A DNA stretch of 64,000 bases from Bdellovibrionales bacterium (lineage in GTDB: Bacteria > Bdellovibrionota > Bdellovibrionia > Bdellovibrionales > CAYMLA01). The stretch spans positions 902,392-966,391 of the forward strand of contig OZ244239.1 in assembly GCA_965217115.1 (NCBI GenBank), written 5' to 3'. The position numbers and the translations under genes were made by a program. Shown piece after piece: positions 6,770 through 36,166 of the stretch. The notes under the pieces were generated by a model, which saw only the letters and a list, made by a program, of their open reading frames with translations, did not search any database and was not told where the DNA came from. The first letter of the stretch is position 1. Every line of letters begins with the position of its first letter.

Positions 6770-8167
6770 TTATTTTGCAACTTTTTTAAATTCTAAAACT
6801 GCCCCTTCATCAACTTCAAGATTTGTTAAAGCAAGTCTTAAGGCCTTCACCGTTCGGCGAAATTGTTCTTGATTTTTATCTATTTGCTTGTTTAATTCTT
6901 GGACCTTATTTCTGTAGTTATTTGATTCGCCCAAAAGTTGATCCATTTTTCTTTTGAGTCCCATTAATGTTTCATCTTTTTGTCTAACAACAGCGTGATT
7001 CTCAAGTTTCATCAGTTCAATACGATTTTCAAGTTCCCTTTCACGCACTCTTATTTTCTTTAGGTCAGACGACAATCGACATTCTAGCTCTTCCACTTTG
7101 CTTTTCTTCTCTTCAATTTCTCTTGTCTTATGGTTCACTGCCTCTTTGAGAATTCCCATTTCAGCTGAAAATATTTCTTCTTGATTTCCTAAATACTGTT
7201 TTAATTTTTCTAACTCCCCCATTTTCTCATCGGAGTTTTTCCTAAAAGTTTCACCTGCTGCTGCAAGGTCTTCATTTTCTATGATTAATCTATCAGCTTC
7301 CTTCTCTAACTCTATAATTTTTTGCTGAGCTGCTTTTAGATTTTCAGCTTGCACTAACCCGACTTCACCAGAAAACTTCTCTGTCTCCGAAGTACTCAAA
7401 GAATCTATACCGTAGCTCACTTGTACCTGATCGTCGGAAGCTCCTCCTCCCACCGATTGCACAGCCACTTGAGTGCTCTCATCAGAATTTTCCTCTGTTT
7501 TTATTTTTTCAAAAGCAACAGGCTCTAACGTTGAAGACAATGGTGTTGCCTTTGTCTCATCTTCTTCTTCAACATCTAGGGAGTATAAATTCTCTTCCTG
7601 CTTATTTTGTAACGAAAAACCATCATCCTGTTCTACTTTTTCACAAATATGAACCTCTGTAGCCTCACTATCTACAGCCTCATTACCTACAACCTCATTA
7701 CCTACAGCCTCATTATCTACAACCTCTTTGTCAGTGTGGTTTTCTCTAATTTGCTGGAACATGGTAGGTTCATCATTCTCAGCACCTTCAACAGCAGAAG
7801 CACTCTCTCCGAGATCAAGAACCCCAAACGGGTCTACATCAAGTGAATTTTCATTCATTTGGTTCTCATCACTATTTCCAGCACCTTCGACAGCAGAAGC
7901 ATTCTCTCCGACATCAAGAACCCCAAACGGGTCTACATCAAGTGAATTTTCATTCGTTTGGTTCTCATCACTATTTCCAGCACCTTCGACAGCAGAAGCA
8001 TTCTCTCCGACATCAAGAACCCCAAACGGGTCTACATCAAGTGAATTTTCATTCATTTGGTTCTCATCACTATTTCCAGCACCTTCCGGCGAAATATCGT
8101 CCAAAAGAGATTCCATGATTTCATCAGCTAAAAGCGATGTCTGTTCTAAATTATCCGTCTTTTTCAT
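6770..8167 (-). CDS. Acidic tandem-repeat / coiled-coil protein of unknown function
   Basis: 465-aa ORF. The N-terminal half is very acidic with 33-aa repeats. The C-terminal ~170 aa are heptad-like and rich in E, K and L. No family recognised. Confidence 0.65.
   Translation of the reverse strand: MKKTDNLEQTSLLADEIMESLLDDISPEGAGNSDENQMNENSLDVDPFGVLDVGENASAVEGAGNSDENQTNENSLDVDPFGVLDVGENASAVEGAGNSDENQMNENSLDVDPFGVLDLGESASAVEGAENDEPTMFQQIRENHTDKEVVDNEAVGNEVVGNEAVDSEATEVHICEKVEQDDGFSLQNKQEENLYSLDVEEEDETKATPLSSTLEPVAFEKIKTEENSDESTQVAVQSVGGGASDDQVQVSYGIDSLSTSETEKFSGEVGLVQAENLKAAQQKIIELEKEADRLIIENEDLAAAGETFRKNSDEKMGELEKLKQYLGNQEEIFSAEMGILKEAVNHKTREIEEKKSKVEELECRLSSDLKKIRVRERELENRIELMKLENHAVVRQKDETLMGLKRKMDQLLGESNNYRNKVQELNKQIDKNQEQFRRTVKALRLALTNLEVDEGAVLEFKKVAK
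7781..8086 (-). repeat. About three tandem copies of a 99-bp (33-codon) in-frame repeat
   Basis: The string 'ccccaaacgggtctacatcaagtgaattttcattc' recurs at 7822, 7921 and 8020 (period 99 bp). It encodes 'AVEGAGNSDENQ(M/T)NENSLDVDPFGVLDVGENAS'. Confidence 0.9.
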
Positions 8168-8541: not shown

Positions 8542-8913
8542 ATGATTCGAGGAATTCACGATTTTTACTATAACGTAAAAAATATGGAAAAAGCGGTTCA
8601 ATTCTATACTGAGACATTAAATATGAAAGTCACTCATGGGTCAGAACACTGGACAAGTCTTGACTGTGAAGGTGTCATGATAGGTCTACACTGGAGTGGG
8701 GGCAATGATATCCCATCTTTTCCAAGAGATTCTCATGGTGCTCATTGTGGTGGGACTTTGACTTTAGTTAGCGATAATATACCTGAAGATCGAAAAATTT
8801 TAGAAGCAGCAGGTTCTAAAATTTTAGGTGAAATGGATGAACTCTGGGGACATATGCTGATTTTTGAAGATATAGATGGCAATGTTCTTAAACTTCAAAA
8901 CGCGAAGTATTGA
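8542..8913 (+). CDS. VOC/glyoxalase-family protein
   Basis: 123 aa with a glyoxalase-like pattern ('FYTETLNMKV', 'FEDIDGNVLKL'). SD 'caggaga' lies upstream of the ATG. Confidence 0.75.
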   Translation: MIRGIHDFYYNVKNMEKAVQFYTETLNMKVTHGSEHWTSLDCEGVMIGLHWSGGNDIPSFPRDSHGAHCGGTLTLVSDNIPEDRKILEAAGSKILGEMDELWGHMLIFEDIDGNVLKLQNAKY

Positions 8914-9050
8914 GGAGCATATTTGAGCCAATTTAATTTACAGACTAATGGGGGAACCGCCCCCCTAACTCAAGTGAATGAGCCTGTTTTTTAAACCTAA
9001 CCTCTTTGACTAAGCCCTTAGTTTTTAATAAAAGGACACGCATCAATTTA

Positions 9051-9809
9051 TTAAAAATGATAAATTAGATTAATAGCATTTTTCCTATGTTTTACCTTTG
9101 CACCATTTCTGTTAAGGCTTCTAAAAGCATCTGCTTGAAATTCATGTCTAGAATAAACAAACTCTAAACTAAAACCATTATGAAAATTTAAGCCTGCTTT
9201 TAGTGCCCTGTAGCTTCCATCAACATCTGTCTCTCCTTTTGTTCCATATTCTGGATCACCTGGAACTCCGCTGTAGTAACTTTTCGTCCACTTACCCTTT
9301 GTTTTTGCATAACCAGCTCCAACATAAGGGCTCACACCTCTTACTGCAGTAAATATATATAATCCACCAAAATAAATATCGATTGTCTCTACCTCAGATG
9401 AAGGTGAATCAACAACGATATCTACTGGGCCGGTCGCAGTGTTTTGTGTAAACGCAGAACCGTCATCATGTTTCAAAGCAATCTCTTGTCTTGGAGACTT
9501 TATTCTTGTTTTATAAATTCCAACTTCATATCCCCAACCTGTTTCTGGAATATATCTTAGATTATAACCAAAAGACGTACTTCTCTCAATGAGTGCATCT
9601 AATATATTTGCATTTTCCTCTGTTATATCCTCTGGATTAGTGCCTATAAAGTGTCCATAATCCAAATGCTTACCTGTTATATCACTCGTTGAATCTCCCA
9701 CACTGCTGCTAACAAGAAACCCATGTTTAAAGATTTCTTCAGCTTTTGCTTCCTGATTGTGTGTCACTGCTAAGATCATCGTCGCGAGAATAATTATATA
9801 TGTGTGCAT
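9051..9809 (-). CDS. Putative outer-membrane beta-barrel protein
   Basis: Signal peptide 'MHTYIIILATMILAV...AKA', alternating Gly/aromatic-rich strands and a C-terminal '...LIYHF' with terminal Phe. Confidence 0.55.
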   Translation of the reverse strand: MHTYIIILATMILAVTHNQEAKAEEIFKHGFLVSSSVGDSTSDITGKHLDYGHFIGTNPEDITEENANILDALIERSTSFGYNLRYIPETGWGYEVGIYKTRIKSPRQEIALKHDDGSAFTQNTATGPVDIVVDSPSSEVETIDIYFGGLYIFTAVRGVSPYVGAGYAKTKGKWTKSYYSGVPGDPEYGTKGETDVDGSYRALKAGLNFHNGFSLEFVYSRHEFQADAFRSLNRNGAKVKHRKNAINLIYHF

Positions 9810-10021: not shown

Positions 10022-11092
10022 TCAGATCAAGAGCTCTGGACGTCCTTCATATTTAGACGTCAATTGACCACAGGCTGCATAAATATCTCTACCCATGGTT
10101 TTACGTAAAAGAACATGAACTCCATTGTCCATTAATTCCTCGCGAAAGCGTTCCACCTGCCCATTGCTCGGTCGAACATAATCAGCATCCTCATGCTCAT
10201 TAAAGGGAATTATGTTCACCTTGCAGGGAATTGATTTAGCTATTTCAGCTAAACGTCTAGCGTCAGCAAGAGAGTCTGTCACTCCTTTAAGTAATACATA
10301 CTCAACAGTCACCTTGTCCTTTGTGATTCTTGCGTGTTTTCGACAGGCCTCTAACAATTGTTCAATGGAGTGCTTTTTATTGATCGGCATAATCTCAGAA
10401 CGAACGGCGTTGGAGCTACCATTGAGTGAAACAGCCAAACGCACTCTGGCTTGAGTGACCAATGGAATTTGCTCCACCAGACCAGAAGTTGATACTGTGA
10501 TCTTCTTTCTTGATATATTCATCCCCCAAGGAGAGTGTAAAACTTCAATCGCTTTAAATACAGCTTCGGGATTATCAAGTGGCTCCCCCATTCCCATAAA
10601 AACAATATTCGTAATACGCTGACCCTCTTCTATAAGATTAGAAGCCCCAACAAACTGCCCGACAATTTCTCTGGCACTTAACCGTTTCTTTAGTTTTCTT
10701 TTGCCCGTAAAACAAAACTTACAACCAAGATTACAACCAACCTCCGATGACACACACAAAGTCAAACGCCCATCAGAAGGAATTAAAACAGCCTCGACCG
10801 TCATTGCTACTTGACGATCATCAATCACTTCGCTGACATCAAAAAGAAACTTCTGTGTCCCATCCACACTGATTTTATGTTCCACAACTTTAGGCAAAGA
10901 AAAATTTAGCAACTGAGGCAACTCTTCGCGAAATTTTTTTGAAAGGTTCGTCATTTGCTCAACGTCAGTCACTCCTTTTTCATAAACCCATTTAAAAATC
11001 TGCTGAGCACGAAACTTGGCCTTACCCAAAATCTCCAATCGACTTTGTAAATCATCCAAACTCAAATCATAAAAATAACTCTTTTCCTTCAA
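10022..11092 (-). CDS. rlmN: 23S rRNA/tRNA (adenine-C2)-methyltransferase, radical SAM
   Basis: 356 aa. Has 'RAQQIFKWVY', the radical-SAM cluster 'CNLGCKFCFTG', 'MGMGEPL' and C-terminal 'AACGQL'. Confidence 0.92.
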   Translation of the reverse strand: MKEKSYFYDLSLDDLQSRLEILGKAKFRAQQIFKWVYEKGVTDVEQMTNLSKKFREELPQLLNFSLPKVVEHKISVDGTQKFLFDVSEVIDDRQVAMTVEAVLIPSDGRLTLCVSSEVGCNLGCKFCFTGKRKLKKRLSAREIVGQFVGASNLIEEGQRITNIVFMGMGEPLDNPEAVFKAIEVLHSPWGMNISRKKITVSTSGLVEQIPLVTQARVRLAVSLNGSSNAVRSEIMPINKKHSIEQLLEACRKHARITKDKVTVEYVLLKGVTDSLADARRLAEIAKSIPCKVNIIPFNEHEDADYVRPSNGQVERFREELMDNGVHVLLRKTMGRDIYAACGQLTSKYEGRPELLI

Positions 11093-11195
11093 TCAGCCCT
11101 CCACCAAAGCCCTCTCCTTCTACCACAAACACCAAAATATCTCACCAAAACCCCCTTTAATAATCCATTCTAATCATTTTTTAAGAATTTATTTC

Positions 11196-11248
11196 ACACC
11201 CCCCTCCGTTATTCCCTCCGTTATTCCCCCCGTTGTTCCCAGTCCCCG
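11196..11248 (+). repeat. C-rich 11-12-nt tandem motif (CCCYCCGTTRTT)n preceding hairpin copy A
   Basis: 'cccctccgttatt ccctccgttatt ccccccgttgtt cccagtccccg' read directly from the sequence. Confidence 0.8.
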
Positions 11249-11264
11249 CAAGTTTTCAAATAAA

Positions 11265-11377
11265 TGGTTCAAAGGGTCTTTCATCTTCAAGCGAGTTCGG
11301 ATTGGTGCGCCGCTCGCAAAGCGAGCCGCGCTGCCGAACGAATGTCTGAGCTTGAAGATGGAAGACCCTTTGAACCA
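11265..11377 (+). repeat. GC-rich 113-bp imperfect palindrome, family H, copy A
   Basis: 'tggttcaaagggtctttcatcttcaagc...gcttgaagatggaagaccctttgaacca' around the core 'cgccgctcgcaaagcgagccgcg'. In this copy the palindrome extends into the flanks (aaataaa / tttattt). Confidence 0.9.
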
Positions 11378-11448
11378 TTTATTTCAGACCCAGCTCCCCA
11401 AAACCCATGTTATAGAGAACCATCTTATACAATTCTACTGGGAGAAAT

Positions 11449-11523
11449 AAAGCCCTAGGTAAATAATCAGCCTCTAGCCGACAAGGCTAAGATTTGACGA
11501 CGTACAAAATAAATTATTCCATT
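11449..11523 (+). repeat. 75-bp repeat Q, copy 1
   Basis: 'aagccctaggtaaataatcagcctctagccgacaaggctaagatttgacgacgtacaaaataaattattccatt' is near-identical to 13441-13514. It abuts the LysR stop codon. Confidence 0.85.
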
Positions 11524-12388
11524 ATTCAAGTGAACGTAGACATTTGGCAACTTTTTTCATTTCTGAGCTTTCTGTAGATGATTTTGACTTAACAATATAA
11601 ACATCTCTTTTGATGGGCTTAAAGCCACTTGGGAAATTTTTCTGATATAGCTTATAATCATCTTTAACAATTTGATTGTGAATTTTGGCAATAAAATTTG
11701 GAAGATAAATAACACATAATCCACTCCTTGAAAGTTCTATTGCACTTTCGAGAGTATCAACTCTATGTTGAATTAAGCGTGGAAACTCATGCTCCGGCCA
11801 ACCATCAAGCCCTTTGACACCTGACGGAGCCCCTTTTATTGGTTGTATGGGAGCTACAAAAGGTATTTCCTGAAAATTTAAATTATTAAAAGAACCTTTT
11901 GTTCCGTAAATTGACATTTGAACTTTTGAAATTTTTAAAAAATCTACCCCAGGAGTTGGGATAGGCTCATATGTTATTCCAAAATCTACTATCTTTTTTG
12001 CAACAAATTCTTCTAATTCTCCCTGTCTGGTTTCATAGAGATCTAATTTATAAGTTTCCAACAATGGCTTCAACTTCTTTAAAAAATACGTGCTAAAGAC
12101 CTCAAATGTTGCTATTTTAATATTACTTGATTCAGCTTTTTTATTTATTACACTTAAATCTTCTATTTGATTGATGATGTTCTTAGCTCTCTTATAAATA
12201 ACTACTGCTTCATTGGAGGGCACTATACCTCGGCCTTCGGGTAAAAATAGTTCAAAACCCAGTTCTTCTTCTAATACTTTCAGTGACTTAGACAGCGCAC
12301 CATGGCTCATTCCTATTAGATCAGCGGCACTTCTTAACCCACCAGTTTCAACAACCGTACAAAATTGCTTAAGCCTATTGGTCTCCAT
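11522..12388 (-). CDS. LysR-family transcriptional regulator
   Basis: The HTH 'LKQFCTVVETGGLRSAADLIGMSHGALSKSLKVLEEELG' begins right after the Met at 12388. The upstream 80 codons of the ORF-track call are hydrophobic read-through and were trimmed. Divergent from 12493 (+). Confidence 0.85.
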   Translation of the reverse strand: METNRLKQFCTVVETGGLRSAADLIGMSHGALSKSLKVLEEELGFELFLPEGRGIVPSNEAVVIYKRAKNIINQIEDLSVINKKAESSNIKIATFEVFSTYFLKKLKPLLETYKLDLYETRQGELEEFVAKKIVDFGITYEPIPTPGVDFLKISKVQMSIYGTKGSFNNLNFQEIPFVAPIQPIKGAPSGVKGLDGWPEHEFPRLIQHRVDTLESAIELSRSGLCVIYLPNFIAKIHNQIVKDDYKLYQKNFPSGFKPIKRDVYIVKSKSSTESSEMKKVAKCLRSLE

Positions 12389-12436
12389 ATAGAAACAGAT
12401 ATATAAAATAATTCGATATACGGCAACAATAAAAAT

Positions 12437-12446
12437 GAATATATTC
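12437..12446. promoter_or_regulatory. Perfect 10-bp palindrome GAATATATTC in the LysR/divergent-gene intergenic region (candidate operator)
   Basis: Read directly from the sequence. Its position between divergent starts (12388 and 12493) fits LysR autoregulation. No experimental support. Confidence 0.2.
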
Positions 12447-12492
12447 CGACCTTCTTGAGAAATCAATAAAGGTCTAAAACCGAGGAGGAGAT

Positions 12493-12858
12493 ATGAAAAC
12501 AATAATTTTATTATGTTTATTGATAGGGTCACAGCATATTTTTGCTGCCAGTTGTGACATTGAAAAAGGGCACTACTTAATATTAAAGGTTGATCAACTA
12601 AAGGTAAAAGTAGATTCTTGTGACCCAACTCCAGGGTGGGGCCAGGGAAGAGCTCATTTTGCTACATTTGATAAAAATGATTTAGCTCGAGCAAAGCGAG
12701 AACTACTTACCAAGCATCACCCCCTGATACCTGACCGTTGTCAATTACTAGGAACAGGTGATATTGAAATTATAAGTAATCGTAGTCTTTGTAGCTTCTC
12801 AGGGGTAGACGAAGCAACAGCAAATTTCACCGTAAGATATAAGTGTCACTTATTCTGA
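12493..12858 (+). CDS. Small secreted protein, unknown function
   Basis: 121 aa. SD 'gaggagg' lies 4 nt upstream. Signal peptide 'MKTIILLCLLIGSQHIFA', five Cys. Confidence 0.6.
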   Translation: MKTIILLCLLIGSQHIFAASCDIEKGHYLILKVDQLKVKVDSCDPTPGWGQGRAHFATFDKNDLARAKRELLTKHHPLIPDRCQLLGTGDIEIISNRSLCSFSGVDEATANFTVRYKCHLF

Positions 12859-12939
12859 TTTAATGTAACTGTTCCTTTAATTCTGTGCAGAGGACGGTAT
12901 GCTAATAAATGTATTTAATAGAGTTAAGGGAAGTGAGAC

Positions 12940-13449
12940 ATGTTATCAAATTTTAAGTTAATTGAATTTTCATCAATAATGTTACTTATTCTAGGTAGTC
13001 TCTCTTTTGCAGGAGTTAAAAACGAAGAGGTTATCTATAAAAAATTGATTCTCAAAGCCAGTAAAGAACAGATTTGGTCTACATTGACTGATCAAAATGA
13101 ACTGGGCAAATGGTGGAATAAAGGAGTCAGACTTGAACCATATGTCGGTGGACAATTCTATGAACCTTGGGGAGAGGGGCAATTAGCCACTGGGAAAGTA
13201 GTAGATTTAAAATTTCAAAAGTTTATAAAGTTTACTTGGAAAGAGAAGTATTGGAATTCTTCTGAAAGTACAGTTTGTACATTTTTTCTAGAGAAAGTAG
13301 AAAAAGGGACGGTCTTAAAAATTCATCATTCTGGCTGGGAGTCTATTAAAGAATTAAGTAAAAGAAAAAAACTAATTGAAGGATTTCAGAAGGGCTGGGA
13401 CCTTCTTTTACCAAAATTGAAGAAATATGTTGAATCGGAAAAGCCCTAG
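12940..13449 (+). CDS. SRPBCC-superfamily (AHSA1/START-like) protein with N-terminal signal/anchor
   Basis: 'ILKASKEQIWSTLTDQNELGKWW...GG.F...W' is typical of the Aha1-like SRPBCC family. The stop codon lies inside repeat Q copy 2. Confidence 0.75.
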   Translation: MLSNFKLIEFSSIMLLILGSLSFAGVKNEEVIYKKLILKASKEQIWSTLTDQNELGKWWNKGVRLEPYVGGQFYEPWGEGQLATGKVVDLKFQKFIKFTWKEKYWNSSESTVCTFFLEKVEKGTVLKIHHSGWESIKELSKRKKLIEGFQKGWDLLLPKLKKYVESEKP

Positions 13450-13514
13450 GTAAATAATCAGGCTCTAGCCGACAAGGCTAAGATTTGACGACGTACAAAA
13501 TAAATTATTCCATT
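13441..13514 (+). repeat. 75-bp repeat Q, copy 2
   Basis: Near-identical to 11449-11523. It spans the SRPBCC stop codon and ends 12 nt before the next gene's ATG. Confidence 0.85.
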
Positions 13515-13526
13515 GGATTATCAGAT

Positions 13527-14117
13527 ATGAATACTAAAAAAGAAAGTTGGAATGATTATTACAAAAAAATAAGCAGAAAACCTCCTAGCCTATTACTTAA
13601 GGTGGCCTTAAATGAGGTTAAGCAGATTGGTATTGCTTATGACTTAGGGGCTGGAGCAGGAGTTGACTCAAAATTTCTAGCCAAACAAGGTTGGAATGTT
13701 TTTGCTGTAGATAAAGAACCGTCATCTATTAATTTTATTAGGAAAATCAAAACAGTGAGAGGTGATATTAAACCTGTTTTATCTAACTTTGAAGAATTAA
13801 CTCTTCAAAAAGCCCATCTTATATTTGCATCATTTTCTTTACCGTTTTGTAGCCCGTGTAAATTTCCATTTTTATGGAACAAAATACAATCATCACTGGT
13901 CGGCGGGGGCATATTGGCTGGAACATTGCTTGGAAATAACGATAGTTGGGTCAAAGATTCTAACGGAGGAATGACATTTCAAACAAATAAACAGATTCTC
14001 GATTTATTTGAAGATTATGAAATTTTATATTTCGATGAACAGGAAGAGGATCGTCCAACGGCTCTAGGAAAGCAAAAGCACTGGCATGTATACAGTTTTG
14101 TAGTCCGAAAACACTAG
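13527..14117 (+). CDS. Class I SAM-dependent methyltransferase (TehB-like size)
   Basis: Motif I 'AYDLGAGAGVDSKFLAKQGWNVFAVDKEP'. ATG 13527 is preferred over the TTG at 13485, which lies inside repeat Q. Confidence 0.8.
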   Translation: MNTKKESWNDYYKKISRKPPSLLLKVALNEVKQIGIAYDLGAGAGVDSKFLAKQGWNVFAVDKEPSSINFIRKIKTVRGDIKPVLSNFEELTLQKAHLIFASFSLPFCSPCKFPFLWNKIQSSLVGGGILAGTLLGNNDSWVKDSNGGMTFQTNKQILDLFEDYEILYFDEQEEDRPTALGKQKHWHVYSFVVRKH

Positions 14118-14151
14118 GTTCTGAGGCGAATTAAAAATCACAAAGCTCAGG
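14114..14151 (+). repeat. 38-bp post-ORF repeat S, copy 1
   Basis: 'ctaggttctgaggcgaattaaaaatcacaaagctcagg' includes the stop codon TAG of the methyltransferase gene. It recurs at 16208 and 17059. Confidence 0.85.
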
Positions 14152-14173
14152 CTTTTAAGATGCCTCCCGTAAA

Positions 14174-14230
14174 GAAGATGAAAGCCCCTTTGAACCAACC
14201 TTATCTACCAAAAGTTAAGTCCTCTCTTTA
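14174..14230 (+). repeat. Truncated H (right arm only) plus tail T
   Basis: 'gaagatgaaagcccctttgaacca' followed by 'accttatctaccaaaagttaagtcctctcttta'. Confidence 0.85.
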
Positions 14231-14281
14231 ACCCCCGCTGTTCCCCCCGTTGTTCCCAATCCCCGCTGTTCCCAGTCCACG
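14231..14281 (+). repeat. C-rich 11-12-nt tandem motif (CCCCCGYTGTT)n
   Basis: 'acccccgctgtt ccccccgttgtt cccaatccccgctgtt cccagtccacg'. Confidence 0.8.
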
Positions 14282-14297
14282 CAAGTTTTCAAATAAA

Positions 14298-14410
14298 TAG
14301 TTCAAAGGGTCTTTTATCTTCAAGCGAGTTCGGATTGGTGCGCCGCTCGCAAAGCGAGCTGCGCTGCCGAACGAATGTCTGAGCTTGAAGATGAAAGCCC
14401 CTTTGAACCA
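14298..14410 (+). repeat. H palindromic repeat, copy B (followed by tail T at 14411-14445)
   Basis: Same 113-bp sequence as copy A with a few substitutions. Preceded by 'caagttttcaaataaa'. Confidence 0.9.
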
Positions 14411-14467
14411 CGCCTTATTTGCCAAAAGTTAAGTTCTCTATTTAGTCCCCAACCTCTCAGCCAAAGC

Positions 14468-14560
14468 CTCTTTTTAAAACTCTAAATTGACAATCTACGC
14501 AAGGGGTTAGACACCTCAAAAACTCTCAGGCATCGATAAATTGATGTCTAAGCTATTTTC
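14468..14560 (+). repeat. ~95-bp repeat U, copy 1
   Basis: 'ctttttaaaactctaaattgacaatctacgcaaggggttagacacctcaaaaactctcagg...' is about 80% identical by eye to 15417-15510. Confidence 0.75.
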
Positions 14561-14675
14561 TCCATGGCATAGAATATGCTGTCTAAAGTCTTGAAATTAA
14601 TGGTATCAGTCTGATTTAGGAGAATTAAATGAAAAAATTATTATTTTTAACAACTATTATTTTGAGGGTATGCCT

Positions 14676-14948
14676 GTGAGATTAGTAAGAACTATCACTA
14701 TCGCTTTAAGTATTTTTTTGAGCTTTGCTGTGTTAGCAAGCGACTATGAGTGTTCAGGATTATTTATGAAGTGCTCTGAAGGAGAAGAAATACATCACCT
14801 TACTAGATTGTCAGAATCTGAATGTAGTGGATCATATGAGGGATGTAGGCAGTACTTAAAAAACGAATTAAAGAACTTACGGAAAGTAAAAAAAACTGAA
14901 GTGTTTTGCTATTTCGATGAATACCGTAACGAAGCTATCTGTTTATAA
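14676..14948 (+). CDS. Small Cys-rich secreted protein, unknown function
   Basis: Signal peptide '(M)RLVRTITIALSIFLSFAVLA' and 7 Cys in the mature part. GTG 14676 has SD 'gaggg' 7 nt upstream. An in-frame ATG at 14670 is the alternative start. Confidence 0.5.
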   Translation: MRLVRTITIALSIFLSFAVLASDYECSGLFMKCSEGEEIHHLTRLSESECSGSYEGCRQYLKNELKNLRKVKKTEVFCYFDEYRNEAICL

Positions 14949-15001
14949 CTAGATTAGTAAAGATGGTTTAAGATGTAAAATACACTCAGCAGGAATACTC
15001 T

Positions 15002-15026
15002 CTGCAAAGATAAGAGTTCTTTGCAG
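15002..15026 (+). terminator. Stem-loop downstream of the 14948 stop (8-bp stem CTGCAAAG / CTTTGCAG, 9-nt loop)
   Basis: Read directly from the sequence. No immediate U-tract follows, so terminator function is uncertain. Confidence 0.3.
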
Positions 15027-15093
15027 CAGCTTGAACAAAGAAATTTCTTTTTCACCTAAGGTTTCTTCTAAAACATGATCCAAAATATACGAG

Positions 15094-15172
15094 CCAAACG
15101 AATGCCTGAGCTTAAAGATGAAAGCCCCTTTGAACCAACCTTATCTACCAAAAGTTAAGTTCTCTATTTAGT
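15094..15172 (+). repeat. Truncated H (right ~44 bp) plus tail T
   Basis: 'ccaaacgaatgcctgagcttaaagatgaaagcccctttgaacca' + 'accttatctaccaaaagttaagttctctatttagtcc'. Confidence 0.85.
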
Positions 15173-15251
15173 CCTTAAGATCCCACCAAACAAGGCACAC
15201 ACCCCGCCCCTTGCCCCCGCTGTTCCCAGTCCCCGCAAGTTTTCAAATAAA

Positions 15252-15364
15252 TGGTTCAAAGGGTCTTTTATCTTCAAGCGAGTTCGGATTGGTGCGCCGC
15301 TCGCAAAGCGAGCCGCGCTGCCGAACGAATGTCTGAGCTTGAAGATGGAAGACCCTTTGAACCA
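15252..15364 (+). repeat. H palindromic repeat, copy C (tail T at 15365-15398)
   Basis: Near-identical to copies A, D and E. Preceded by the C-rich motif and 'caagttttcaaataaa'. Confidence 0.9.
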
Positions 15365-15416
15365 GCCTTACCTACCAAAAGTTAAGTCCTCTCTTTAGTC
15401 TGCTGCCCCAGAAAAA

Positions 15417-15510
15417 ACTCTTTTTAAAACTCTAAACTGACAATCTGTGCAAGGGATTAGACACCTCAGAAAAGCTCAGTTACCGATAGATTTATGTCTG
15501 AGCTGTTTTT
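15417..15510 (+). repeat. ~95-bp repeat U, copy 2
   Basis: 'ctttttaaaactctaaactgacaatctgtgcaagggattagacacctcagaaaagctcag...' parallels 14468-14560. A degenerate Q-like stretch follows at 15531-15570. Confidence 0.75.
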
Positions 15511-15765
15511 TCGATGAGCGGTAAATAATTGATCCCCAGCCAACAGGACTAGAATATCATAGCGAGGCCACTGGAAAGTGGTCTTTTTCCTTTGGGGCCG
15601 GAAAACGTCACTTCTAAAAGCAATCCCCGAAAAAATTGAAAAATTTACATCACTCGATGATTTTCCCCTTAAAAGTGCACGAATCAGTTATAATAATTCA
15701 AACAATATCAATCAAATTTAAGAGAATTTGTCCCCCAAGGAAATAGAACGATATCAAGAGGAGAA

Positions 15766-16176
15766 ATGATGAAAAAAATATTAATTGGTTTAACTCTTTT
15801 AATGTCCGTTACAGTTTTTGCTGAGAAAAGGATTATCACCTGCTCAAATACGGCTATCACAGTTCATTCGGAGAATATTATCGGAGGGGAATTCACTGTG
15901 ACGCCTTCTAAAGGAATTCAGCATAAACTAACTATCAAATTGGAAGGAGGAGCAGATTCAATTTTTTGGGCTACTTCAGACACTTCTCAAGAACAACTTT
16001 TTGCTGGAGGCATCATGCATAATGCCAGTAGCTTAACCATGTTTCCTGGCGGTAATAAAGCAATGTTGTCCTTCGAAGGCGATATTTATCCTTTGGTGTG
16101 TGATAAAAAATGGAGTACTGAGTTGAGTAAATGGCTTGAAGAATGGCACCAAAGGGAGAAAAGGTGGTCTTGGTAG
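15766..16176 (+). CDS. Secreted protein, unknown function
   Basis: 136 aa. SD 'agaggag' upstream. Signal peptide 'MMKKILIGLTLLMSVTVFA'. Confidence 0.55.
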   Translation: MMKKILIGLTLLMSVTVFAEKRIITCSNTAITVHSENIIGGEFTVTPSKGIQHKLTIKLEGGADSIFWATSDTSQEQLFAGGIMHNASSLTMFPGGNKAMLSFEGDIYPLVCDKKWSTELSKWLEEWHQREKRWSW

Positions 16177-16207
16177 TAAACTCATTAACTAGACAGATTT
16201 TTTTTCA

Positions 16208-16245
16208 CTAGGTTCTGAGGCTAATTAAAAATCACAAAACTCAGG
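16208..16245 (+). repeat. Post-ORF repeat S, copy 2 (no H follows)
   Basis: 'ctaggttctgaggctaattaaaaatcacaaaactcagg'. Confidence 0.8.
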
Positions 16246-16299
16246 AACTCTAAACGAATCGAACAAATAAACCATTAGTTTATCGAGGATAGAAAGACT

Positions 16300-17058
16300 T
16301 TGAGATTACTTTTAATATTGTTTTTTTCTGCATTTATATTTAGTGATACCTCTTGGGCTTCTTCTTCATGTGCAGACTTTCTCGGGAGTTCATTCAGAAG
16401 TGAAAGTCGTGTTATTACGACCGATACAATAGTTAAAAAAAGTGATGCTCCCATCTTAATGAAAGATATTTTAGGTTTTGTATATTACACTAAATTAAAT
16501 TGGAAAAATTTTATATCTAAACATCGAAGAAAGGTTCGTTTATATGATACTGATTGGAGCAGAGAGAATTTCCTTAAGGAACAATTACTCTTACCTAAAG
16601 ACTTAAAGCCTGATGAGCGAAAGATTATCTTAAAAATAAAGAGAGAGACATCACCGGAATCAAAACATTATAAAAAGGCGCAAGAATTAGAAGGGACTCC
16701 AGATATTATTGGAGTTGAGTCTGCTATTTTGAAAATTAAACTTAAAAGCAACGACATTTATTATGCTGAACACACTTCAAATAGAGAGACATCAATAAAA
16801 GTTCAAGATATTCTTTCAGCATTATCTGGAATAGGAAGAAAAAAGAATTTCTCGCCAAATGATATTGCAGAATTACACTTTTTCCATAATCATCCAGGAA
16901 TAACTCAACCTATCTCAAAGCCTGATGTGGGAGTTGCCAAGAAATTTGTAAAAATTTTTGGTGATAATAATCCCGATTTTAAATTTCACATGTATGCAAT
17001 TAGTTTTGAAAATAGTCTTCGTCCAACACTTATCTTTCATGCTGGGTTTCAGAATTGA
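16300..17058 (+). CDS. Secreted protein with a JAB/MPN+ (JAMM) metalloprotease motif
   Basis: TTG start with 'gagga' 10 nt upstream. Signal peptide 'MRLLLILFFSAFIFSDTSWA'. 'HFFHNHPGITQPISKPD' matches H-x-H-x7-S-x2-D exactly, with a candidate upstream Glu in 'YYAEHTS'. Confidence 0.6.
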   Translation: MRLLLILFFSAFIFSDTSWASSSCADFLGSSFRSESRVITTDTIVKKSDAPILMKDILGFVYYTKLNWKNFISKHRRKVRLYDTDWSRENFLKEQLLLPKDLKPDERKIILKIKRETSPESKHYKKAQELEGTPDIIGVESAILKIKLKSNDIYYAEHTSNRETSIKVQDILSALSGIGRKKNFSPNDIAELHFFHNHPGITQPISKPDVGVAKKFVKIFGDNNPDFKFHMYAISFENSLRPTLIFHAGFQN

Positions 17059-17096
17059 CTAGGTTCTGAGGCGAATTAAAAATCACAAAGCTCAGG
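17059..17096 (+). repeat. Post-ORF repeat S, copy 3
   Basis: Identical to copy 1. Starts immediately after the TGA stop at 17056-17058. Confidence 0.85.
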
Positions 17097-17118
17097 CTTT
17101 TAAGATGCCTCCCGCAAA

Positions 17119-17166
17119 GAAGATGAAAGCCCCCTTTGAACCAACCTTATCTACCAAAAGTTAAGT
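17119..17166 (+). repeat. Truncated H (right arm) plus tail T
   Basis: 'gaagatgaaagccccctttgaacca' + 'accttatctaccaaaagttaagtc'. Confidence 0.85.
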
Positions 17167-17230
17167 CCGTTGTTCCCCCGCTGTTCCCCATTGTCCCCCC
17201 CCCTGTTCCCCCCGCTGTTCCCAGTCCCCG
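17167..17230 (+). repeat. C-rich 11-12-nt tandem motif, longest array
   Basis: 'cgttgtt cccccgctgtt ccccattgt ccccccccctgtt ccccccgctgtt cccagtccccg'. Confidence 0.8.
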
Positions 17231-17246
17231 CAAGTTTTCAAATAAA

Positions 17247-17359
17247 TGGTTCAAAGGGTCTTTTATCTTCAAGCGAGTTCGGATTGGTGCGCCGCTCGCA
17301 AAGCGAGCCGCGCTGCCGAACGAATGTCTGAGCTTGAAGATGGAAGACCCTTTGAACCA
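17247..17359 (+). repeat. H palindromic repeat, copy D (tail T at 17360-17392)
   Basis: Full 113-bp copy, in tandem with copy E about 215 bp downstream. Confidence 0.9.
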
Positions 17360-17461
17360 GCCTTATCTACCAAAAGTTAAGTCCTCTATATAGGCCTTAA
17401 GCCCCCCACCGAACACCCCATACCTTCGCTGTTCCCAGTCCACGCAAGTTTTCAAATAAAA

Positions 17462-17574
17462 TGGTTCAAAGGGTCTTTCATCTTCAAGCGAGTTCGGATT
17501 GGTGCGCCGCTCGCAAAGCGAGCTGCGCTGCCGAACGAATGTCTGAGCTTGAAGATGGAAGACCCTTTGAACCA
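17462..17574 (+). repeat. H palindromic repeat, copy E (tail T overlaps the hldA-like stop codon)
   Basis: Full copy. The tail 'gccttatctgccagaagttaagttctctatgtagg' at 17575-17608 contains the TAA stop (17578-17580, minus strand) of the neighbouring gene. Confidence 0.9.
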
Positions 17575-17577
17575 GCC

Positions 17578-18618
17578 TTATCTGCCAGAAGTTAAGTTCT
17601 CTATGTAGGCCTTAAGCCCCCCCCCCGAACAAGGTACACACCCCACCTTACCCACAACAAACCCCGCTGCAAAATTAGACAAAACACAGGAATCTAATAG
17701 TGACAATTGAGCTGCCTTTGCTAACGCTAAAGTTGCTACCACAGTATCCCCCGCCCCCGTCACATCAAAAACCTGACGGGCATAGGTGGGAACAATGTTC
17801 ACTTGTTCTGCGCTGTAAAGAACCATTCCTTCACTTCCCCGAGTTAAAACCAATTCATCGGCGCCTATTTTATCACGAATTCTCTGTCCTAAATTTAAAA
17901 TAGCCTGCTCATCTTGCCAACAACGATCAAAAGATTCTCCCAAAAGAGTTAAACTCTCCTCAAAATTGGGCTTAAATAGATTCGCCCCGCGATAAAAATC
18001 CAGGGGAGTCTCTCGATGGGGGTCAATTAAAACTTGCTTAGAAGATGACTTGGCAATGAGCAAAATTTCTTGAATCAAAGTCTCATTCAACAGTCCTTTG
18101 GCGTAATCCTGTAAAACAACCGCTTGGCACTGATCAATATTATCCTTGATCACTTGCAATATCTTCCTATGAACACTCTCACTGATATCCTGACGACGCT
18201 CATAATCAACGCGCACAATGTGATTATGACCTGTCATAACTCGAGCTTTACGTGTCGTTGGACGGCAGGAGTCTTCCACAAGATATTGACCTTCAATTCC
18301 CTCTCTCTCTAAAATATCACGTAACTTATCAGCTCCTTGGTCCTTTCCAATCACTGAAACAAGAATAGGATAACCCCCCAAACCGACAATATTATGAGCT
18401 ACATTGGCCGCCATCCCCAGACGAGTATCTTCTTTTTTAACCTCTAGAACTGGCACTGGAGCTTCTGGGCTAATTCTGCGCACATCACCAGTGATATATT
18501 CATCCAACCCACAATCACCTACCACTAAGATTCTCTTATCTGACAGAGTTTCAACTTGTTGTAAGAGCTTCGGTAAAAGTTCTTTACCTGGAATAGAGCT
18601 TTGAAAGGGCTTTAACAT
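17578..18618 (-). CDS. hldA: D-glycero-beta-D-manno-heptose-7-phosphate kinase (RfaE domain I type, PfkB family)
   Basis: 'ILVVGDCGLDEYITGDVRRISPEAPVPVL' is the RfaE-kinase hallmark, and 'DVTGAGDTVVATLA' is the PfkB motif. The last ~22 codons are encoded by repeat-related sequence. Confidence 0.85.
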   Translation of the reverse strand: MLKPFQSSIPGKELLPKLLQQVETLSDKRILVVGDCGLDEYITGDVRRISPEAPVPVLEVKKEDTRLGMAANVAHNIVGLGGYPILVSVIGKDQGADKLRDILEREGIEGQYLVEDSCRPTTRKARVMTGHNHIVRVDYERRQDISESVHRKILQVIKDNIDQCQAVVLQDYAKGLLNETLIQEILLIAKSSSKQVLIDPHRETPLDFYRGANLFKPNFEESLTLLGESFDRCWQDEQAILNLGQRIRDKIGADELVLTRGSEGMVLYSAEQVNIVPTYARQVFDVTGAGDTVVATLALAKAAQLSLLDSCVLSNFAAGFVVGKVGCVPCSGGGLKAYIENLTSGR

Positions 18619-32466: not shown

Positions 32467-33627
32467 TTATCGCACTATTCCTTGCTCCCCATGACTCCCT
32501 CCACCGTCACCCTGTGAATCTTTTTTTGGATGCTTCTTAGCAATCGCCTGTTGCACCTTTTCCTCACAAGTTTGATTATAATCGCCCATTATTTTAGCTG
32601 ATTTCTTAGACTGGAAGTTCTGCAAAGCTCCCTCGCAACAATCAGCAATGAGTGTTGTGAGCCCTTCTTTAAAAAGGGGTTTGAAATTCTTCTCTGCCAA
32701 TGCTTTTACATTAAATTCAACGTGATAGGTGAATGGGCTTTTCCCTAAATCTTTAAAAAAGGCTCCTGAGAAATCACTCTCTTGAACAAACCTAGGGTGT
32801 TCTTTGTCGGTTTTAGCAAATAAACCCTTTTCGTCCAGTTCCCTAAGACCATCCCCTGCAAATACAAGGATTTTATCACCACTTGATATATTTTTTATTC
32901 TTGGAAAACTAAAATCTCCATCTTTGATCCCTAAGGTGTACTTCTTGCCCCCTACTGTTATATCAGAAAATGATCGACCCTTCTTATCCCTGCGACAGGT
33001 AAATTCTGTTGGATTTAAAGACTCCAACAACCTTTCATCCGCGGAATCAACATTCTTGTATATAGTCATGCCTACCCAAGTTATACCAGCAATGACTCCA
33101 TTAATGGCAATTGAAATTGGCAACATATTAGCAGTTGTGATAACAATACCAACAGCATGGGCTTTAGGCGCTATTAATGATAAGAACACAGACGGTGATT
33201 TACTTGGTTTTTGATAGAGTTTATTTATCGCTGTGTAAAGGGAGCGAAAACTCCTATGGGAGGTCGCATTTAACTCTTTGCCATTAATAAGGAACTTTCC
33301 CTCAATGGCTTTTTGAAAACCGACGTTGACCTTCTCGCCACCCACCCTCATCACCAGATCATTGCCACTCACGGAGAGTTTTATCTTTTGGGATTTAGGT
33401 GTTTGCTCTATCAGATCTTGGATGAACTTCCTGTCGTCTTTCAACTTCAATATCTTCTTTAAACCAACGAACATCTCCCGCGCATGGACGCCATGGATCT
33501 GTTCATAGGCTCGACCCATTAACTCTTGATTCACATCACTCAAAGGAGTCCCAAACACGACGGGTGAAAAAAGCAAGCCCACCATAGATGTAAAAAAAAC
33601 TGACATCAGTAAAACCATTCTCTTCAT
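32467..33627 (-). CDS. Secreted paralogue 1 of a tandem four-gene family (unknown function)
   Basis: SD 'ggaagg' 6 nt before ATG 33627. Signal peptide 'MKRMVLLMSVFFTSMVGLLFSPVVFG'. Has the conserved N-domain, a unique hydrophobic segment (about 33040-33153) and a Cys-containing C-domain. Confidence 0.75.
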   Translation of the reverse strand: MKRMVLLMSVFFTSMVGLLFSPVVFGTPLSDVNQELMGRAYEQIHGVHAREMFVGLKKILKLKDDRKFIQDLIEQTPKSQKIKLSVSGNDLVMRVGGEKVNVGFQKAIEGKFLINGKELNATSHRSFRSLYTAINKLYQKPSKSPSVFLSLIAPKAHAVGIVITTANMLPISIAINGVIAGITWVGMTIYKNVDSADERLLESLNPTEFTCRRDKKGRSFSDITVGGKKYTLGIKDGDFSFPRIKNISSGDKILVFAGDGLRELDEKGLFAKTDKEHPRFVQESDFSGAFFKDLGKSPFTYHVEFNVKALAEKNFKPLFKEGLTTLIADCCEGALQNFQSKKSAKIMGDYNQTCEEKVQQAIAKKHPKKDSQGDGGGSHGEQGIVR

Positions 33628-33672
33628 CAGAAACCTTCCATTCAAATTCAATGGGTTTTTCATGTGCTGCTC

Positions 33673-34845
33673 TTATTTCACTGTTGTTCTATTATTAGTC
33701 GTTCCATCATCACCTGATGAATCTTTTTTTGGATGCTTTTTAGCAATCGCCTGTTGCACCTTTTCCTCACAAGTTCGACTCCTAGCGCCCATCGTTCCAT
33801 ATGATCTCTTATTAAATTGGAAGTTCTCCAAAGCTCCATCGCAACAATCAGCAATGGCTGTGAGCCCTACTCTTAAAAAAGGCTTGAAATTTTTCTCTGC
33901 CAATTTTTTTAACCCACGTTTATCACCTTGATAAAAGCGGCTGCTTTTATAGTCTCTAAAAACAGCTTTTGAGAAATCACTCGCCTGAACAGATTTAGGG
34001 TATGGCTCGGTTCTAATAACTGAACCCCTTCTGTACCGTCCCCTAAAACCATCATTTGCAAATATAATCTCTCTTTTATGCCCATCAGCCTTACCAACTG
34101 ATATGCTTTTTATTCTTGGACGATTAAACGCTCCATCTCTGATCTTTAAGGTGTACTTCTTGCCCCCTACTGTTATATCAGAAAATGACTGATCATCCTT
34201 ATCCCTGCGACAACTAAATTCCGTTGGATCTAAAGATTGCAGCAGCCTTTCATCCATAGGAGTGCCTCCAAGATTCGTATCTGACCCTAGAAAATCTATA
34301 CCATTAAGAATTGAGGGTATAAGAATTACAGGAGTCATTGCAGCAATAGCAGAAGTAGCTATCAAACCAAGAGCATAGGCTTTAGGCGCTATTAACGATA
34401 AAAACACAGACGGTGATTTACTTGGCTTTTGATAGAGTTTATTTATCGCCGTGTAAAGAGACCGAAAACTCCTATGGGAGGTCACATTTAACTCTTTGCC
34501 ATTAATAAGGAACTTTCCCTCGATGGCTTTTTGAAAGCCAACGTTGATCTTCTCTCCCCCCACACTCATCACCAGATCATTGCCACTCACGGAGAGTTTT
34601 ATCTTTTGGGATTTAGGTGTTTGCTCTATCAGCTCTTGGATGAATTTCCTGTCGTCTTTCAACTTCAATATCTTCTTTAAACCAACGAACATCTCCCGCG
34701 CATGGACGCCATGGATCTGTTCATAGGCTCGACCCATTAACTCTTGATTCACATCACTCAAAGGAGTCCCAAACACGACTGGTGAAAAAAGCAAACTCAC
34801 CATAGATGTAAAAAAAACTGACATCAGTAAAACCATTCTCTTCAT
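33673..34845 (-). CDS. Secreted paralogue 2
   Basis: Same architecture as paralogue 1. Start ATG 34845 after 'aaggaaggtctgtg'. Unique segment at about 34255-34374. Confidence 0.75.
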   Translation of the reverse strand: MKRMVLLMSVFFTSMVSLLFSPVVFGTPLSDVNQELMGRAYEQIHGVHAREMFVGLKKILKLKDDRKFIQELIEQTPKSQKIKLSVSGNDLVMSVGGEKINVGFQKAIEGKFLINGKELNVTSHRSFRSLYTAINKLYQKPSKSPSVFLSLIAPKAYALGLIATSAIAAMTPVILIPSILNGIDFLGSDTNLGGTPMDERLLQSLDPTEFSCRRDKDDQSFSDITVGGKKYTLKIRDGAFNRPRIKSISVGKADGHKREIIFANDGFRGRYRRGSVIRTEPYPKSVQASDFSKAVFRDYKSSRFYQGDKRGLKKLAEKNFKPFLRVGLTAIADCCDGALENFQFNKRSYGTMGARSRTCEEKVQQAIAKKHPKKDSSGDDGTTNNRTTVK

Positions 34846-34889
34846 CACAGACCTTCCTTTCAAATTCAATGATTTTTCATGTGCTGCTC

Positions 34890-36071
34890 TTAGTGCACTG
34901 CCGGAGTATCCCTAAAACGCACTCCACCGTTATCTTGTGAATCTTTTTTTGGATGCTTTTTAGCAATCGCCTGTTGCAGCTTTTCCTCACAAGTTCGACT
35001 CCTAGCGCCCATCGTTCCATATGATCTCTTATTAGATTGGAAGTTCTCCAAAGCTCCCTCGCAACAATCAGCAATGGCTGTGAGCCCTACTTTTAAAAAA
35101 GGCTTGAAATTTTTCTCTGCCAATTTTTTTAACCCACGTTTATCACCTTGATAAAAGCGGCTGCTTTTATAGTCTCTAAAAACAGCTTTTGAGAAATCAC
35201 TCTCCTGAACAGGTTCAGGGCGGTATGGCTCGGTTCTAATAAAAAGTAAACCATTTCTGTACCGTCCCCTAAAACCATCATTTGCAAATATAATCTCTTT
35301 TTTATGCCCATCAGCCTTACCAATTGATATACTTTTTATTCTTGGGCGATTAAACGCTCCATCTCTGATCTTTAAGGTGTACTTCTTGCCACCCACTGTT
35401 ATATCAGAAAATGGTTGATCATCCTTATCCCTGCGACAACTAAATTCCGTTGGATCTAAAGATTGCAACAGCCTTTCATCCATAGGAGTGCTTCCAAGAT
35501 TCGTATCTGCCCTTAGAAAATCCAGAACAGTCCAAATTGTGGGAGCAACAATTGCACCAAGCATTGCACCAATACCAACACTAGCTATCAAACCAACAGC
35601 ATGGGCTTTAGGCGCTATTAATGATAAAAACACAGACGGTGATTTACTTGGTTTTTGATAGAGTTTGTTTATCGCCGTGTAAAGGGACCGGAAACTCCTA
35701 TGGGAGGTCGCATTTAACTCTTTGCCATTAATAAGGAACTTTCCCTCAATGGCTTTTTGAAACCCGACGTTGATCTTCTCGCCACCCACCCTCATCACCA
35801 GATCATTGCCACTCACGGAGAGTTTTATCTTATGGGATTTAGGTGTTTGCTCTATCAGCCCTTGGATGAATTTCCTGTCGTCTTTCAACTTCAATATCTT
35901 CTTTAAACCAACGAACATCTCCCGCGCATGGACGCCATGGATCTGTTCATAGGCTCGACCCATTAACTCTTGATTCACATCACTCAAAGGAGTCCCAAAT
36001 ACGACTGGTGAAAAAAGCAAGCCCACCATAGATGTAAAAAAAACTGACATCAGTAAAACCATTCTCTTCAT
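34890..36071 (-). CDS. Secreted paralogue 3
   Basis: Same architecture. The C-domain is about 90% identical to paralogue 2 by eye. Unique segment at about 35481-35597. Confidence 0.75.
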   Translation of the reverse strand: MKRMVLLMSVFFTSMVGLLFSPVVFGTPLSDVNQELMGRAYEQIHGVHAREMFVGLKKILKLKDDRKFIQGLIEQTPKSHKIKLSVSGNDLVMRVGGEKINVGFQKAIEGKFLINGKELNATSHRSFRSLYTAINKLYQKPSKSPSVFLSLIAPKAHAVGLIASVGIGAMLGAIVAPTIWTVLDFLRADTNLGSTPMDERLLQSLDPTEFSCRRDKDDQPFSDITVGGKKYTLKIRDGAFNRPRIKSISIGKADGHKKEIIFANDGFRGRYRNGLLFIRTEPYRPEPVQESDFSKAVFRDYKSSRFYQGDKRGLKKLAEKNFKPFLKVGLTAIADCCEGALENFQSNKRSYGTMGARSRTCEEKLQQAIAKKHPKKDSQDNGGVRFRDTPAVH

Positions 36072-36166
36072 CATAGACCTTCCTTTCAAATTCAATGATT
36101 TTTCATGTGCTGTTCTTAACCAATACTCTTTAAGCAGAGAAATGCTAAATTTTAAACACCTCTCTC

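Follow-up and report, generated by a model that had tools for sequence, protein, structure and literature searches.

In the 64,000-nucleotide (nt) stretch analyzed here (the window; positions 902,392 to 966,391 of contig OZ244239.1 from a Bdellovibrionales bacterium), rlmN (10022-11092, - strand) and pfkB (17578-18618, - strand), the latter encoding a PfkB-family kinase, flank a 6.5-kb accessory island (11093-17577) that contains every copy of a GC-rich, imperfect hairpin termed H. The two genes are adjacent, with spacers of 27-56 nt, in four contigs from relatives (L001, L002, L003, and L024), and the island bracketed by H copies splits this otherwise conserved pair. Judged by RlmN, the nearest named relatives are Bdellovibrio and Pseudobdellovibrionaceae (62-66% identity). 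Direct repeats bound the island, copy H1 on the rlmN side and copies H4 and H5 on the pfkB side, and the bounding copies H1 and H5 differ at 1 of 113 positions. Between them are a LysR regulator gene (- strand) and six + strand open reading frames (ORFs) for an AHSA1/SRPBCC protein, a methyltransferase, and four small proteins that had no match in Pfam, PHROG or PADLOC. Among ORFs of at least 120 amino acids (aa) in the 64 kb, we found none for an integrase, a transposase, an HUH enzyme or a reverse transcriptase, and the rest of the window is occupied by housekeeping genes, among them the dcw cell-division cluster and those of the glycine cleavage system.

An earlier note, made from the sequence alone, had described positions 17247-17359 (+ strand; copy H4) as a 113-bp, GC-rich, asymmetric hairpin, and folding bore this out. 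The + strand RNA reached -75.7 kcal/mol compared to -33.0 +/- 3.6 kcal/mol for dinucleotide-preserving shuffles (z = -11.9), the - strand RNA reached -65.8 kcal/mol (z = -11.2), and with DNA parameters both strands came to about -42 kcal/mol (z about -10.5 to -11); in each of these tests, 0 of 200 shuffles folded equally well. The architecture was also as the note had it. The outer stem spans 28 consecutive positions, consisting of 16 and 10 Watson-Crick pairs with two T.G/U.G pairs between them; TTCGG pairs with CCGAA, and the inner stem, GCGC-C-GCTCGC-AAA-GCGAGC-C-GCGC, carries a C.C mismatch and an AAA loop. The asymmetry arises from 6-11 surplus unpaired bases on the 3' side of the core, their number being set by the register, and the unpaired bulge within the 56-nt core reads CGAATGTCTGA. 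As claimed, the core is richer in GC (0.61-0.63) than its surroundings (0.41-0.45 in the arms and 0.39 in the window). The arms form terminal inverted repeats of 28 nt (35 nt in H1) that are 93-96% complementary and end in TGGTTCAAAGGG...CCCTTTGAACCA, i.e., GTTC...GAAC. Folded alone, arms or half-elements are weak (-1 to -3.5 kcal/mol) and the single inner stem reaches -18.2 kcal/mol.

The analysis confirmed the five copies listed by the note, which start at 11265, 14298, 15252, 17247, and 17462. They share the + strand, are 96-100% identical, and show 0-5 differences over 113 positions. H3 (15252-15364) is identical to H4, while H2 (14298-14410) is the most divergent (4-5 differences) and has a right arm of the GAAAGCCCC type found in truncated copies. 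At the rlmN end of the island, H1 (11258-11384) forms a longer palindrome of 127 nt, and H5 (17462-17574), in tandem with H4, lies 3 nt from the pfkB stop codon. H is the sole long-hairpin family in the window, and its five full and three truncated copies are all confined to 11.2-17.6 kb, with none in the other 57 kb. Five sites vary in all: one exchanges U.G for C-G, one is an unpaired mismatch position, and three weaken or alter pairs in H2. Among these five copies, no compensatory change of the kind that the note had proposed to look for could therefore be scored. The variable sites are mutually incompatible phylogenetically, which suggests exchange among the copies. ORFs of 64-85 codons cross hairpin units at 17136-17393 and 11264-11458 (+ strand) and 14228-14425 (- strand); these are by-products of the repeats, not genes.

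The repeated unit exceeds the 113-nt hairpin, extending over about 197-215 nt. From left to right, it consists of C-rich 12-nt direct repeats ("iterons"; CCGCTGTTCCC) that vary from one to five per unit, a 34-nt left module (CGCTGTTCCCAGTCCCCGCAAGTTTTCAAATAAA), the hairpin, and a right module that begins GCCTTATCTACCAAAAGTTAAGTYCTCT. In the H4 unit, about five copies of the 12-nt repeat (17167-17222, + strand) lie 5' of the left module (17213-17246, + strand); elsewhere, the repeats occur at 11202-11240 (3.2 copies) and 14232-14282. The left module precedes every full copy and is conserved at its other + strand locations (11231-11264, 14264-14297, 15218-15251, and about 17427-17461). Its reverse complement constitutes the U-rich tract behind the - strand hairpin. 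Units H4 and H5 are arranged in tandem, flanks included, with a 215-nt period and 95% identity. We found no target-site duplication at H: the flanks (TTCAAATAAA and GCCTTATCTA; TTTATTTCAG at H1) are without a direct repeat and belong to the duplicated unit.

Comparison of the right modules to pfkB showed them to be decayed copies of that gene's 3' end, lying antisense to it. To the right of H5 lie the final 23 codons of pfkB and its stop (17575-17647, - strand; ...CSGGGLKAYIENLTSGR*, with the stop at 17578-17580), and this sequence is the template of the right modules. BLAST of this gene end against the island returned a 72-nt copy (83% identity) at 15139-15208 (E = 1e-16) and a 57-nt copy (89%) at 17360-17415, which is the right module of H4. 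Shorter copies of 22-37 nt adjoin every other right arm, including those of H2 (14411-14448; 89% over 37 nt) and, equivalently, H3 (15365-15398), and H1 is without a right module. Truncated units, reduced to the right arm and right module, begin at 14174, 15093, and 17119 on the + strand. The one at 15093-15208 retains the 3' part of the core and the right arm (15093-15137), followed by the 72-nt pseudo-copy. The other two are preceded by a further module, termed X: a decayed unit at 14104-14225, without significant fold, has X over the methyltransferase stop codon, then a right arm (14174-14197) and right module, and a unit at 17049-17166 has X from 1 nt past the stop codon of a 252-aa ORF, then a right arm (17119-17143) and right module. 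The latter unit is 93% identical to 14104-14191.

Since the C-terminal residues LKAYIE of the pfkB product align with the C-termini of the relatives' proteins, the pfkB gene end is ancestral and the other copies are pseudo-3'-ends. This combination indicates that the block of about 215 nt, made up of the pfkB 3' end, the hairpin, and the left module, was multiplied in place instead of being sown by a freely transposing element. It also changes the meaning of the copies' likeness, which the note had taken as strong conservation that suggests recognition in single-stranded form. Considering that whole blocks were duplicated together with their flanks and pfkB pseudo-ends, the five copies are so alike because they were recently duplicated or converted and not because of purifying selection. 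The argument from copy identity is unsound, and recognition in single-stranded form may or may not apply. The final five pfkB codons (LTSGR) differ from the relatives' C-termini.

The X module (CACTAGGTTCTGAGGCGAATTAAAAATCACAAAGCTCAGG...) occurs at 14104-14173, 16198-16245, and 17049-17118, at or just past the stop codons of three unrelated ORFs, and the methyltransferase ORF takes its TAG stop from it. X modules were considered as a second structured family and rejected, their fold z-scores being -1.1 to +0.8.

Evidence of constraint came from outside the window. A profile of the unit found one match, at 2646-2765 of L001 (ENA ERZ25073853; E = 1e-15), a relative whose RlmN is 74% identical, and the corresponding sequence scored 92.8 bits with covariance model R1. 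This homologue lies 15 nt past the stop codon of pyrD (DHO_dh), i.e., at another gene, in the same orientation to its upstream gene as H5 to pfkB, and it stands alone, without cassettes. The core (AGTTCGGATTGGTGCGC.GCTCGC-loop-GCGAGC.GCGCTGCCGAACG.ATGT.TGA) is identical to that of the window at 51 of 56 positions (91%), the unpaired bulge included, whereas third codon positions are only 44% identical in rlmN and 39% in pfkB. With neutral sites thus near saturation, identity at this level supports sequence-specific recognition of the core. The distal arms (GCCAAACAAAAAAAAGA / TCTTTTTTTTTGTTTGGC) are unrelated in sequence, yet paired; the loop has changed from AAA to CAACG with the gain of one C-G pair, and the C.C mismatch has become U.G. 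The consensus fold contains eight double-sided changes, every one of them contributed by the L001 sequence alone. These differences indicate that the core of about 56 nt is constrained across the two genomes and that the closing arms are free to vary if they remain paired. The homologue was the one copy in 17 kb of that relative's DNA, and in about 95 kb from five relatives, there were no further copies.

Several observations adjoin the homologue. L002, a second contig of the L001 organism, begins within the element's right arm, and H may explain the assembly break at that point. Directly 5' of the homologue, at 2499-2596, L001 has a G-rich tandem repeat with a period of 7/21 and about 4.7-11.7 copies, which parallels the C-rich 12-nt repeats of the window and differs from them in sequence and strand composition. 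A flanking TGGGAAC was considered as kin of the 12-nt repeats and set aside as chance, being too short and inverted. The publicly annotated 135-aa L001 "gene" over this region is almost certainly spurious.

Searches for a described relative of H were negative. Scans of genome, metagenome, and viral contig collections with exact and degenerate core patterns gave 0 matches, and BLAST of the unit against plasmids and phages gave none. A pattern restricted to the arms (GGTTCAAAGGG..CCCTTTGAACC) had 17 matches in genome contigs (Flavobacterium, Acidobacteriota, and Dialister), which on inspection were unrelated hairpins. Those hairpins, of 90-120 nt, form a recurring pattern of their own: the arms are tandem 8-9-mers of the GGTTCAAAG/GGGACAAAG type and often enclose a terminator-like stem-loop (among L004-L020, e.g., L010 3906-4002, L005 1000-1118, and L019 3599-3717). 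A frame-ii ORF over the element recovered one irrelevant repetitive protein in a representative protein search. At the gathering threshold, Rfam had 0 matches over the window, and the Rfam search suggested by the earlier note brought no family even at E <= 10 for the element or E <= 5 for the L001 homologue, the only matches being at chance level (snR4, H19_3, and ybhL; 12-16 bits). Without an Rfam match, hammerhead and other known ribozymes and known non-coding RNAs were ruled out; a relation to tRNA or tmRNA found no support in ARAGORN. A dif-like reading of GGTGCGC in the core was dropped, since the match covers 7 nt only and there is no XerD arm.

The class to which H belongs can nonetheless be narrowed. 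A long, imperfect, non-coding palindrome that is found at gene 3' ends, at non-orthologous sites in two genomes, in tandem clusters, and with remnants points to the class that includes REP/REPIN/BIME, ERIC, and Correia elements, and H is most likely a new family within this class of palindromic intergenic repeats. Like ERIC/IRU and Correia (CREE/NEMIS) elements, which are imperfect palindromes of about 100-150 bp, H (113-127 nt) is intergenic, would form a long hairpin in a transcript, combines inverted repeats with a conserved core, and has kept its sequence between species. It differs from them in having no sequence similarity, no TA or other target duplication, copies clustered in one island of the 64 kb, each with a piece of the neighboring gene, and variability in the outer arms rather than the core. 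Correia elements likewise join an inverted repeat to a conserved core and bind RNase III (PMC2649163), and REPINs form ordered tandem clusters that include flanking sequence (PMC3116915).

With the REP/REPIN/BIME group, H shares a hairpin that could form in single-stranded DNA or mRNA, an inner stem that is GC-rich and imperfect with a mismatch, a mosaic arrangement with other short motifs, tandem clusters with flanks, and truncated "singlet" remnants. It is, however, far longer, its arms are not self-palindromic REPs, and neither a RAYT (Y1 HUH) gene nor an insertion sequence was found in the 64-kb window. The earlier note had considered a match to a known REP/BIME-type family; what H has in common with that family holds at the level of class properties, but does not extend to sequence similarity or to self-folding arms.

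Our favored reading, which we hold tentatively and with a little less than half of our confidence, is that H forms the hairpin center of a palindromic repeat of this class, one that is non-coding, restricted to the lineage, and lodged immediately 3' of stop codons, where it acts both as a transcript-end hairpin and as a recombination hotspot and where its core is bound by a factor. In such a repeat, the near-identical direct copies would serve as recombination substrates for the gain, loss, and shuffling of intervening genes. The lopsided conserved core would be a putative docking site for a protein, e.g., a mobilizing enzyme or an RNA-binding factor.

A role at transcript ends is suggested first by the - strand. 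There, all five copies are followed by UUUAUUUG, and the H5 hairpin starts 3 nt past the pfkB stop; H1 has a tail of this type on both sides, the + strand of H2 to H5 is without a U tract, and U8-U9 tracts flank the L001 copy on either side. Given the tail, the position of H5, and the L001 tracts, a role as a large terminator or insulator is plausible, and the - strand hairpin with its U-rich tract would act behind pfkB as a 3'-end barrier or insulator, much like a large, partly bidirectional intrinsic terminator. The same evidence, together with the location of H4 and H5 between convergent genes and of the L001 copy just past pyrD, could be taken to mean that H is nothing else than a large, possibly bidirectional intrinsic terminator of pfkB that was copied along with the gene end, its likeness to L001 being due to horizontal transfer or chance. 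We consider this highly improbable. At 113-127 nt, branched, and asymmetric, H is unlike ordinary terminators of 20-40 nt; the relatives' short pfkB-rlmN spacers need no such element; a core 91% identical at another gene is unexpected where synonymous sites are saturated; wholly different arms in L001 run counter to recent transfer of the whole element; and the G.U pairs described below favor the wrong strand, after which H2 to H5 have no U tract. Of the earlier note's assertion that H is not a simple terminator, the part concerning size and shape stands, whereas a terminator role as such is compatible with the tail and the position of H5. A terminator consensus scan did not call H.

On the + strand, past the island ORFs, the palindromic repeat that we favor would have 40-60 nt of RNA rich in C and poor in G ahead of its hairpin. 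This arrangement would suit Rho loading, and the hairpin would then protect the trimmed 3' end from exonuclease. The 28-bp stem would also serve as a substrate for RNase III. Features of the same strand raise the alternative that the core functions as structured RNA, be it as a cis-regulatory element or from a small RNA gene of its own, with the outer stem as closing helix and the loop and bulge as the site for a ligand or protein. Structured RNAs usually combine a conserved core with peripheral helices that vary yet stay paired. In both the window and L001, the + strand fold contains 4-6 G.U pairs and the - strand fold 0-1, and stability favors the + strand RNA by about 9-10 kcal/mol; since the + strand of the window is the C-rich strand by GC skew, the usual C-to-T bias, which would act on the G-rich strand, would be expected to place G.U pairs on the opposite strand. 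The loop of L001 gained its C-G pair by compensating change, and transcripts of the island ORFs, which use the + strand, would also take in H2 to H5. On the other hand, H belongs to no Rfam family at E <= 10, and neither H1 nor the L001 copy, each situated between - strand genes, has a convincing promoter upstream. The double-sided changes come from one sequence and lie in the outer arms, as any palindrome would show, and the core pairs are invariant and thus uninformative either way. Five copies within 6.5 kb beside unrelated genes suggest no common regulatory logic, and we therefore regard a structured RNA as distinctly unlikely.

The arrangement of the island itself invites a third explanation, namely that H, alone or with the pfkB 3' end, is the att site of a site-specific recombination system. 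Small circular elements carrying genes would have integrated one after another (accretion) at the pfkB end to build the island. Each integration would leave another site, and the asymmetric core would let a recombinase encoded elsewhere distinguish strands or orientations, possibly in folded single-stranded DNA as with attC. Much at the locus fits: the sites share one orientation and one cluster, with unrelated, mostly orphan ORFs of one strand between them; a conserved gene pair is interrupted by an island bounded by direct repeats; the sites carry a pseudo-copy of the target gene's 3' end, the usual sign of integration at gene ends; short direct repeats adjoin the site, as would arm-type or attI-type binding sites; and the hairpin is strand-asymmetric with a conserved bulge. 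Genomic-island att direct repeats lie in gene 3' ends, and CIME-type arrays represent tandem accretion of elements without an integrase. As in these, direct repeats with the target 3' end both bound and subdivide the island, a gene pair is split, and no integrase is encoded inside. In contrast to them, the H repeats are about 200 nt long with a 113-nt hairpin and ragged ends, the distal repeat has no gene-end segment, and the hairpin also occurs solo at another gene in a relative.

The likeness to integron attC sites, in particular the homogeneous 120-130-bp repeats in sedentary chromosomal integrons (e.g., Vibrio VCRs), and to CALIN arrays lies in similar size, an imperfect hairpin whose strands fold differently, and near-identical copies of the same orientation in a single cluster with small, mostly orphan ORFs on one strand between them. 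Canonical integron attC sites were nevertheless rejected. A home-made pattern filter, as distinct from the IntegronFinder covariance model, found 0 complementary RYYYAAC/GTTRRRY core pairs on both strands of the window; H has no R''/R' cores and ends in GTT...AAC, the reverse of the attC order AAC...GTT. It is conserved inside instead of at the stem base, its spacers are long and non-coding, and its sites carry pfkB-end pseudo-copies. Neither intI nor attI was found in the window, and no ORF of at least 120 aa matched Phage_integrase or another recombinase family; since CALIN arrays occur without intI, its absence alone does not exclude an attC-like role.

Other features speak against integration. 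The pfkB-end copies stop after 22, 27, 34, 37, 57 or 72 nt, and two different starting points are seen among the truncated units, so that no single crossover nucleotide is evident, and such ragged boundaries resemble decay or homologous exchange more than precise crossover. ORFs of at least 120 aa in the window include none for an integrase, a transposase or an HUH enzyme, and H1, the distal copy, is without the pfkB-end module at the very place where the displaced native gene end would be expected. Unlike packed cassettes, the ORFs are separated from the sites by 500-800 nt of non-coding DNA, and what lies between the sites includes X and D6 modules and the reverse-strand LysR gene. Finally, the L001 homologue is solitary. 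We thus judge an att site to be possible but rather unlikely. In a more specific form of it, a cassette-accretion system new to science would recombine at folded H in a strand-specific manner. H would then be a functional analogue of attC built differently, with a conserved asymmetric core, variable closing arms, and direct repeats beside it, and orphan genes would be stacked at a housekeeping 3' end by a recombinase or HUH enzyme encoded elsewhere. This form is in our view very unlikely. A small share of our confidence goes to none of the readings given here.

The palindromic-repeat interpretation that we prefer also faces contrary evidence. Instead of the dispersed copies expected of a repeat family, the window has no copy outside the island and the relatives' DNA, about 95 kb, has one homologue, and the conservation argument depends on that one outside sequence. 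Classical MITEs and REPINs are conserved at their ends or REP arms, whereas H is conserved in its core and varies in its arms. Furthermore, for a role at the RNA level, the G.U bias favors the + strand and the terminator-like position behind pfkB and pyrD the - strand.

Additional repeats and genes were observed in and around the island. Behind H2 and H3 lies a 104-nt module (14463-14566 and 15413-15516; 83% identical) with a promoter-like TTGACA...TAGACA followed about 40 nt on by a hairpin and T run, with a terminator-like call at 14528-14549. This module might represent a small RNA gene, or else a 5' leader for the ORFs of small secreted proteins that lie downstream. A 75-nt direct repeat (11449-11523 and 13440-13514; 99% identical) that holds a - strand terminator-like hairpin surrounds the LysR-ORF121-AHSA1 segment of ~2 kb and may mark another recent insertion or duplication within the island. 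The 252-aa ORF (16300-17058, + strand) has a signal-peptide-like N-terminus and no match in Pfam, PHROG or PADLOC, and by eye its HNHPGITQPISKPD stretch fits the JAMM/MPN+ metalloprotease motif HxHx7SxxD. On the other side of rlmN, between it and the next syntenic gene, a glyoxalase-like ORF of 123 aa and a beta-barrel OMP-like ORF of 252 aa (8542-9809) are without counterpart at that position in L001, which makes this a second variable spot beside rlmN. Farther away, three tandem 99-nt repeats (7770-8086; 93-94% identical) lie in a 465-aa ORF (6770-8167) without a Pfam match, and four tandem paralogues of about 390-401 aa (32467-37339, - strand; period ~1.2 kb, 63-96% nucleotide identity) had no Pfam match in the three copies scanned.

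If our interpretation is correct, H would represent a palindromic intergenic repeat family not described before, from a lineage of Bdellovibrionota that has received little study, and an instructive one in that its conserved part is an asymmetric internal core and not its termini. As a practical matter, it accounts for spurious ORF calls such as 17136-17393 and the annotated L001 "gene". If instead the recombination-site or the structured-RNA explanation were true, the core would constitute a new recognition motif. For the bacterium, our reading would mean that the 3' end of a housekeeping gene was turned into a hotspot at which a 215-nt block multiplied and orphan genes accumulated, and the locus would offer a case of a hairpin repeat seeding an accessory-gene island without a nearby integrase.

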